The position numbers and the translations under genes are program-made. From assembly GCF_055900595.2 (NCBI RefSeq), contig NZ_CM148325.1: 64,000 nucleotides of DNA; one strand, 5' to 3'. Numbering within the stretch: the stretch's first letter is position 1; each line of letters opens with the position of its first letter. This document shows, in pieces, positions 56,041 to 57,808 of this stretch. Below the pieces are notes generated by a model that was given only the letters and a program-made list of their open reading frames with translations, did not search any database and was not told the origin of the DNA.

Positions 56041-56629
56041 GACGAATAATGCGCTTACGGTTTTTGCTCTGGCGTTTTGTCATGTCGCCACGGTGTTTTA
56101 TCAGCAGGTTTCTGTTTATCGTTCAACTGTGGTATCTGGTCACCGGCCTTCATTTTGTATGCTGTGTCCGTTTTATCCTGCAGCGGCGTTGCCGGTGATT
56201 TACTGAAAATACCCTGCGGTTTACGGTTAATGGTCAGAGTTACCATCAATTTTGTTACCTCGCGCTGTCAATGGAAGTAGTACCTCATCCGATATCTGAA
56301 AATGTTTTCCGGTGGATGTTACAGCGAATTTCATGTAAGACATGTTGTTGTCGGTATTGTTCAGTACTGTGCGTTGTGAGCGTATTCGTTATCAGACAGA
56401 GGGGCAGGGAACAAATGGCGTAAACGGACATCTCAGTGCCTGAGAAACAGTACAGGTCAGGCCATCATGGCCTGCAAACAGAGCCCTGGCGACCCCGTGG
56501 CCGAAAACGAAACAATAACCCGCGCGCAGTGCGAGGAATCCGGATGTGAAGCAATCAGCAGGTAATATTAATGGCAGGACCAGCAGGTTCTTTAAACAAA
56601 CGAAGGTGGTGACTCCAATTAGTAGAACA

Positions 56630-57040
56630 TATATTTTTCGATAAAGGCACCGATGACTTTTTCATGAAGTTCTACAGAGCGCGAGAAACAGATAGTTCTG
56701 CGGGCCAGACGTTTGATTCGGGTTCTCAGAGGTAGATGTTGCGCTCAATGCGCTGAGTAAAAATCTTACCAGTCAGATGCTTCTCCTTCGGTAACTCTCT
56801 GGTGTAACTACCCCATTCGTCAGTGGTCAACATACCGATGGTAAAAGGGCAAGCAGCGCCAGCAATTCACGACAGGTTTAATCAGTCCGTAGGCCAAAAG
56901 TGTAGGCCAGAACGCCACCAGTTTTCGTGTTGTACGTGTACCAGAGCCAGTGCTGTCGCGCTTTACTGCCGACAAAACTCCATTGCTCATCAAGTTCGCA
57001 GATGAGTGCCATATCAGCATGAGCGACCGGGTATGACGTT
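56630..57040 (-). pseudogene. IS1 InsB-like reading frame with frameshifts and stops
   Basis: Manual translation gives ICELDEQWSFVGSKARQHWLWYTYN... then a stop, and the C-terminal ...SRSVELHEKVIGAFIEKYMFY only in another frame. Confidence 0.6.
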
Positions 57041-57290
57041 ATTCTTCGTGGCGAGAGTTTTTTAAAGTCCGGATGACAGTATTAATGCCGATTTTCAGCG
57101 TACGGGCAGTATCGCGAACTCCGGCACCGTTGAAAGCCATTTCAGTGATTTGCTCTTTAACTCCCGGTTTACGGGCCTCGTAACGGTAAGTGAGCTGAAG
57201 CACTCGATGACAGTCACGGCAGCGAAATCGATCATGTCCTTTGGGTTCTTCCCGTGACGGTAAACCTGAACGGACTGGCAACAGGAGCAA
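57039..57290 (-). CDS. IS1 InsA-like protein
   Basis: 83-aa ORF ...FRCRDCHRVLQLTYRYEARKPGVKEQITEMAFNGAGVRDTARTLKIGINTVIRTLKNS; zinc-finger plus HTH pattern of InsA. Confidence 0.8.
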   Translation of the reverse strand: MLLLPVRSGLPSREEPKGHDRFRCRDCHRVLQLTYRYEARKPGVKEQITEMAFNGAGVRDTARTLKIGINTVIRTLKNSRHEE

Positions 57291-57808
57291 TGAAGGTTAA
57301 CTGTGACCATGAAAGAACCTTAAAAGTGGCTATTATACTCCTAATTCAACTAATTGGAGTCATTACCGTATTCATAATGGATTAGGTTCAGCAGTTGCTG
57401 AAGTGCTTGTAGAAACTTGTCCTGTGCCCATGCGTCGGGTGGGGGTTAAAGAGCGGTATGGCCAGGTTGAAACTCAGGACTTTTTACAGAGAGAGTACGG
57501 GTTAACCGCGCAAGCTATTGTGGCGGCAGCCAGAGAGCTATTGTAATTCATGGAGTTTGTTTACCATTCTGTTTTTCTTAAAAGTGAGTGTCTGTGCGGT
57601 CACTAAACTCGGTAATAAAGCAGTTCATTGCAGGATAAGAAGCGTTTGGTTGTGTCGTTTTACCGTAAGAACCGACCGCCGTATGTATCCATTAAGCCAG
57701 TATTGGTAACGTAGGTGCCCACCTTTTCAAACTGGTGGGCGCCTGTTATGGAGCAAAAACATTATCCGCAGAACCCCGCAGATCATTTTCAAATGAGTTA
57801 AACTTCAA

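Follow-up and report, generated by a model that had tools for sequence, protein, structure and literature searches.

We identified an ordinary, fully inactivated IS1-family copy of 763 bp at positions 56605..57367, minus strand, of the 64-kb stretch of DNA analyzed here (64,000 nucleotides, the window). With a probability of about 0.93, this element is a dead, non-autonomous copy of the iso-IS1/IS1N branch, which would have inserted, taken part in a rearrangement and then decayed, and which would now be inherited passively with its genomic island. Both insA and insB' are broken because of three single-nucleotide deletions and one nonsense codon. The pseudogene is already recognized by public annotation, since RefSeq labels an identical copy as ‘IS1 family transposase; frameshifted; internal stop,’ and we found no evidence to the contrary.

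Size and termini of the element

The intact relative of the element is 766 bp long. The window copy falls within the size range of the IS1 family (about 740-800 bp) and is bounded by imperfect inverted repeats that start with GGT, as is usual in this family, where such repeats span about 23-30 bp. The two ends were compared with those of the intact element on plasmid pEM148, which is described below:

57345..57367, minus strand: left inverted repeat (IRL), GGTAATGACTCCAATTAGTTGAA; one mismatch in 23 nt relative to the pEM148 IRL
56605..56627, plus strand: right inverted repeat (IRR), GGTGGTGACTCCAATTAGTAGAA; same as the pEM148 IRR

These repeats of 23 nt, starting with GGTAATG and GGTGGTG, are 87% complementary according to the repeat finder (20 of 23 positions matched). 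A degenerate end motif occurs at two sites in the 64-kb window, both being the ends of the element, with 0.19 sites expected by chance. The same search gave no second copy of the element in the window, and canonical IS1 ends are found nowhere in its 64 kb. An earlier note made from the sequence alone had recognized an IS1-like element at 56607-57367. The element, on the minus strand, is indeed present, but its true start is 56605 and the earlier boundary cut off two nucleotides of the IRR.

Relation to canonical IS1 and to IS1N

The displaced reading frames were joined into a conceptual, frame-corrected InsAB' protein of 231 aa, which was used for both profile and protein searches. By homology, this translation contains the complete domain set of the IS1 family, i.e., the InsA zinc ribbon and helix-turn-helix (HTH) and the InsB' DDE domain: the Pfam matches are PF03811 (Zn_ribbon_InsA, 1.3e-16), PF12759 (HTH_Tnp_IS1, 1.9e-27) and PF03400 (DDE_Tnp_IS1, 3.4e-70). 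It also scores 248.8 bits against the NCBIfam model NF033558 (IS1 family transposase), for which the cut-off is 100.

Canonical IS1A of E. coli K-12 has the same components as the window element (inverted repeats, an insA with zinc ribbon and HTH, an A6C −1 frameshift site and an insB' with DDE domain), but the similarity between the two is only about 45% at the protein level and essentially absent in the DNA. With K-12 InsA as the tblastn query against the six-frame translation, residues 26-87 were recovered at 47% identity, while K-12 InsB returned three pieces (43%, 34%, and 52% identity), each in its own frame. BLASTn against IS1A gave only three short patches of 11-29 nt. The element is thus IS1-type yet divergent, as had been proposed, and the comparison of the frame translations with InsB, also proposed there, recovers InsB in three pieces and three frames. 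IS1A is moreover intact and mobile. Canonical IS1 was dropped as a reference for mapping lesions because the DNA similarity is too low, and intact relatives were used instead.

The best matches in a search of 5.8 billion proteins are intact transposases of 231 aa with 86-88% identity. Many of them are named as IS1N family (Shigella dysenteriae, Klebsiella), and others come from Izhakiella, Enterobacter, Pantoea, and E. albertii. On this protein similarity, the element belongs to the iso-IS1/IS1N branch and is far from canonical IS1. IS1N, an iso-IS1 from Shigella dysenteriae, shares the organization, the 766-bp length class, the A6C motif and similar ends (GGTGGTGCCTCTAATTAGTTGAA) with the window element. 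Its InsAB' shows 86-87% amino acid identity to the frame-corrected protein, but the DNA of the two is clearly diverged in the alignment, and in Sd197, IS1N occurs as multiple intact copies. ISfinder treats elements as isoforms of a reference at an identity of at least ~95% at the nucleotide or 98% at the amino acid level. With 86-87% amino acid identity to IS1N-family transposases, the window element lies below this near-identity level and, judged by this convention, is a different isoform and not IS1N itself.

Intact plasmid-borne relatives

After the protein search, intact relatives were found by a DNA search of plasmids. The nearest is an unnamed intact element of 766 bp on plasmid pEM148 of E. 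marmotae (NZ_CP025980.1; transposase WP_103194758.1), which shows about 97.3-97.4% nucleotide identity to the window copy over the full length, the differences amounting to 18 substitutions and three single-base deletions. A second intact 766-bp copy is present on Salmonella enterica plasmid pSA20083530.1 (WP_114047604.1; 96.7% nucleotide identity). Both carry an annotated, unflagged transposase CDS of 695 nt and, once extracted, both yield an InsA of 90 aa and an InsAB' of 231 aa after one −1 shift at AAAAAAC. Their inverted repeats and A6C motif are the same as in the window copy, and 10 of the 231 residues of the frame-corrected window protein differ from the plasmid-type InsAB'. In pEM148, an 8-bp target duplication (TGGTAAGT) surrounds the element. 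The plasmid elements thus have an uninterrupted InsA and InsAB', whereas the window copy has three single-nucleotide deletions, a nonsense codon and no duplication.

Reading frames and inactivating lesions

The reading frames and lesions are arranged as follows:

57310..57095, minus strand: 5' insA open reading frame, 71 aa, frameshifted; starts at the native ATG and is InsA-like only over residues 1-24
57239..57245 (deletion at about 57240-57243), minus strand: lesion 1, loss of one A from an A4 run; leaves CCCAAAG, read as C_CCA_AAG
57039..57241, minus strand: rest of insA (second CxxC, HTH, native stop at 57041-57039), displaced to the −1 frame
57063..57057, minus strand: A6C motif AAAAAAC, intact; site of the programmed −1 frameshift
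56850..57063, minus strand: insB' segment 1 (KKLSPRRITSY...TCRELLALLA), tblastn frame +2, 43% identity to K-12 InsB; holds lesion 2
56878..56880, minus strand: lesion 2, nonsense codon TAA in place of GAA in intact relatives
56847..56850, minus strand: lesion 3, loss of one C from a C4 run; shifts the insB' frame
56738..56848, minus strand: insB' segment 2 (PFTIGMLTTDEWGSY...FTQRIERN), tblastn frame +1, 34% identity
56737..56738, minus strand: lesion 4, loss of one A, changing CAACAATCT to CAACATCT; third frameshift
56619..56737, minus strand: insB' segment 3 (LPLRTRIKRLARRTICFSRSVELHEKVIGAFIEKYMFY), tblastn frame +3, 52% identity; ends with the native stop at 56621-56619

Lesion 1 was found by alignment to the intact elements and its register was confirmed by a frame check. 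It is a deletion of one nucleotide after codon 24, and the element therefore does not contain the open frame of about 90 codons, with zinc ribbon and HTH, that characterizes an InsA gene. On the 71-aa frame, the Pfam Zn_ribbon_InsA match covers only residues 1-24, up to the first CxxC, while the remainder, from GHDRFRCRDC... to the HTH, matches HTH_Tnp_IS1 (1.4e-30) in the displaced frame. The claim of an intact insA-like gene is thereby overturned. A product of 24 native and 47 out-of-frame residues is not expected to have repressor activity. InsA of IS1 depends on its DNA-binding part both for repression of the IS promoter and for binding to the inverted repeats (PMC12903888).

The A6C motif lies in the overlap of insA and insB' and is conserved in all aligned relatives, as is typical of the IS1 family. 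The insB' part carries one TAA and two frameshifts beyond the programmed one, which bears out the decay of insB already suspected. Presumably, segment 2 carries the codons for the second Asp and the Glu of the DDE triad (after Ohta et al. 2002). Both native stops, that of insA at 57041-57039 and that of insB' at 56621-56619, are kept. An autonomous IS1 has a single InsAB' frame that needs only one −1 shift at A6C; here, a TAA and three additional frameshifts interrupt it. The ruined transposase frame agrees with the view of an old, immobile copy. The lesions are best explained by a history of decay after which the window copy would make neither the InsA repressor nor the InsAB' transposase.

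Distribution and sister copies

The fossil is present at at least 99% identity in about 290 complete E. coli records. The best 30 of these ~290 matches all have the same transketolase stub next to the element, and a base-by-base comparison of three copies (L001, L004, and L013) showed identical flanks and the full set of four lesions in each. When the intact pEM148 element was compared with 5,426 complete E. coli genomes, the best full-length match was the fossil itself (97.4%), and no intact copy of the isoform ranked above it in these genomes.

A second lineage, located between yiiX and an Rhs element, shows 92-93% nucleotide identity to the window copy and is fixed in about 2,600 E. coli records. 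In two of the sequences inspected, it lies at 3001-3759 (L002) and 3001-3762 (L003), where PGAP labels it as a pseudogene of the ‘IS1H family.’ These ‘IS1H-like’ copies were rejected as an intact reference, since they are decayed as well. Like the window copy, the yiiX/Rhs copy has lost a single C from the C run, but it differs in its locus, in its open insA frame and in an extra deletion of its own near the 3' end, and it is free of the other three lesions of the window copy. The common C deletion was either inherited from a shared ancestor or arose in parallel, by slippage in the same homopolymer run.

Junctions and the missing target duplication

In the minus-strand sense, the element is preceded by TATGAATAC and followed by TTCGTTTGT. 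These flanks differ, and there is no target duplication, as the earlier note had stated, although IS1 generates target duplications of 8-9 bp (and large rearrangements; PMC12903888). The lack of a duplication is a property of this copy, not of the IS1 family. On the IRL side, the element borders a gene remnant:

57368..57546, plus strand: 3' stub (last ~180 nt) of the transketolase C-terminal subunit gene, starting exactly at the IS terminus

RefSeq labels this stub as ‘transketolase family protein; missing N-terminus.’ In strain M21816, the transketolase C-subunit gene is complete; ahead of it lie the N-subunit gene and a gene for a PTS ascorbate-type IIC component, and the genes downstream of it are shared with the window. 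Homology between M21816 and the window begins exactly at 57368 (...AACCATA / GTATTCATAATGG, with the slash at the junction), and the 3 kb upstream in M21816 are found nowhere in the 64-kb window. The IRR-side flank consists of island backbone that lies upstream of a ProQ/FinO-like pseudogene. Strain F2_407_2_2 has a related island without the IS, which matches this flank exactly from 56604 and whose DNA further upstream is absent from the window.

An IS-mediated rearrangement is suggested because the homology of each flank stops exactly at the IS terminus and the flanks are unrelated to each other. Age had been offered as the reason for the missing duplication, but the IS-free versions of both flanks show a join of unrelated sequences, which points to a rearrangement rather than to an age-eroded repeat. 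From the lesions, junctions and distribution, which were read directly, we infer both the sequence of steps and the kind of rearrangement. First, an active copy would have inserted into the split-transketolase C-terminal subunit gene of a PTS-transketolase operon in an E. coli genomic island. A rearrangement mediated by the IS, by intramolecular transposition (adjacent deletion) or by recombination with a second copy, may then have linked the other terminus to unrelated DNA of the island, located upstream of the ProQ/FinO-like gene; the element would thereby have lost its target duplication and the operon its 5' part. Either adjacent deletion or inter-copy recombination fits; the sequence alone does not choose between them. 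Subsequently, insA and insB' would have been broken by the nonsense codon and by three deletions of one base each, of which two fall in homopolymer runs, and the copy would now be inherited passively with the island.

The host island and its neighborhood

The host island is CP4-like and carries yeeU/cbtA, antirestriction, DUF932, and GTPase genes. Its site varies: it lies on the cadC side in LH50-c and adjoins ynjB in DG341-1. Because the island is located at different chromosomal sites, the fossil most likely travels passively with it. The first ~40 kb of the window have no match to the LH50-c neighborhood and are not colinear with it, and the LH50-c annotation was applied to the local region only. 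No tRNA genes that could represent an attachment site of the island were found in the 64-kb window.

Several further observations concern the surroundings of the element. Between the IS and the ProQ/FinO-like pseudogene, at about 56407-56415, the window misses ~30 bp relative to most island-bearing genomes, and the alignment shows a 9-nt overlap at the borders of this indel. The ProQ/FinO-family gene itself (55738-56246, minus strand) is a frameshifted pseudogene in the window and intact in the F2_407_2_2 island. Just past the transketolase stub, at 57670-57919, there is a fragment of an IS66-family tnpA accessory gene, annotated as ‘transposase; frameshifted; incomplete’ and sharing 92-96% identity with tnpA from IS66-like elements found elsewhere in E. 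coli. A YadA-like adhesin gene at about 59390-59820 contains internal tandem repeats of ~100 bp, the number of which varies by strain (annotated gene of 1143, 1266, and 1542 nt in three genomes). The island end, approximately 61200-64000, is an IS graveyard with IS256-family, integrase-core and ISL3-family remnants, which are frameshifted or incomplete in matching genomes.

Residual activity of the element

Four readings would leave the element some activity, two of them by way of InsA. The earlier note had suggested that an immobile copy with an intact insA still supplies the InsA repressor in trans. The promoter-proximal ATG, the HTH-coding region (1.4e-30 against HTH_Tnp_IS1) and the native insA stop are all retained, but the single-nucleotide deletion places the first 24 codons and the remainder in separate frames, the only upstream starts in the HTH frame are TTG codons without a visible Shine-Dalgarno sequence, and the intact InsA of the same IS type is a single 90-aa open reading frame. 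Because insA is split between the halves of the zinc ribbon, the copy cannot be expected to supply the InsA repressor; at the sequence level, this reading can be regarded as already refuted, and we give it hardly any credence. Trace amounts of repressor could still arise if ribosomes slipped by −1 at C_CCA_AAG, which would restore the exact wild-type InsA (...KNPKGHDRF...). The heptamer is in the right register (AAC CCA AAG, with CCA and AAG as zero-frame codons), the −1 frame runs on into the remainder of insA as ...NPKGHDRF..., and C_CC.A_AA.G ranks near the top of the −1 motifs in E. coli for efficiency (PMC4066793). Its efficiency of 54% was obtained with the IS3 pseudoknot, however, and motifs without a stimulator shift at only ~0.3% (Sharma et al., PMC4066793). 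No stimulatory RNA structure was detected in the 80 nt downstream of C_CCA_AAG, whose folding is not better than that of shuffled sequence (z = 0.27). Expression starts from an IS1 promoter of low strength (PMC12903888); a sigma-70 consensus scan of the IRL region gave no minus-strand match, which says little in view of the stringency of the scan and the known weakness of this promoter. Deletions arise in slippery runs anyway, which makes the coincidence cheap, and no cognate intact element for InsA to repress is evident in the complete E. coli genomes. Such leaky rescue is therefore very unlikely; if true, the fossil would be a leaky source of DNA-binding InsA, or a frameshift mutation buffered by slippage, and not a null allele.

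The two other readings concern mobility. That the element is intact after all, once programmed frameshifting is modeled correctly, would agree with the whole A6C motif and with the recovery of all Pfam domains after frame correction. The frame correction, however, takes four frame changes and one stop read-through, where the intact relatives need a single −1 shift, and RefSeq marks the copy as ‘frameshifted; internal stop.’ Modeling the −1 shift at A6C, through which the earlier note allowed that an intact InsAB frame might reappear, leaves the stop and two further frameshifts in place. By alignment to intact copies, this reading appears already refuted and has practically no chance of being correct. 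A non-autonomous, MITE-like element whose ends can still be moved in trans by a related InsAB' is unlikely, but its ends are well preserved (the IRR is the same as in the intact element and the IRL deviates at 1 of 23 positions) and IS1 copies that are otherwise immobile can be moved in trans when IS1 transposase levels are high (PMC12903888). On the other hand, the native transposase of IS1 works predominantly in cis (PMC12903888), the search of complete E. coli genomes gave no intact cognate copy, and the fossil occupies the same junction in every inspected copy and is usually the sole copy of its type per genome.

Significance

The significance of the fossil is small. It corrects the earlier reading, as insA is broken too and the duplication was probably lost by rearrangement, and it shows where a PTS-transketolase cargo operon was truncated in an E. 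coli island that is widespread. Intact full-length copies of this IS type are apparently extinct in sequenced complete E. coli genomes, while the type survives intact on plasmids of E. marmotae and Salmonella. This contrast is a small and unsurprising point on IS turnover.
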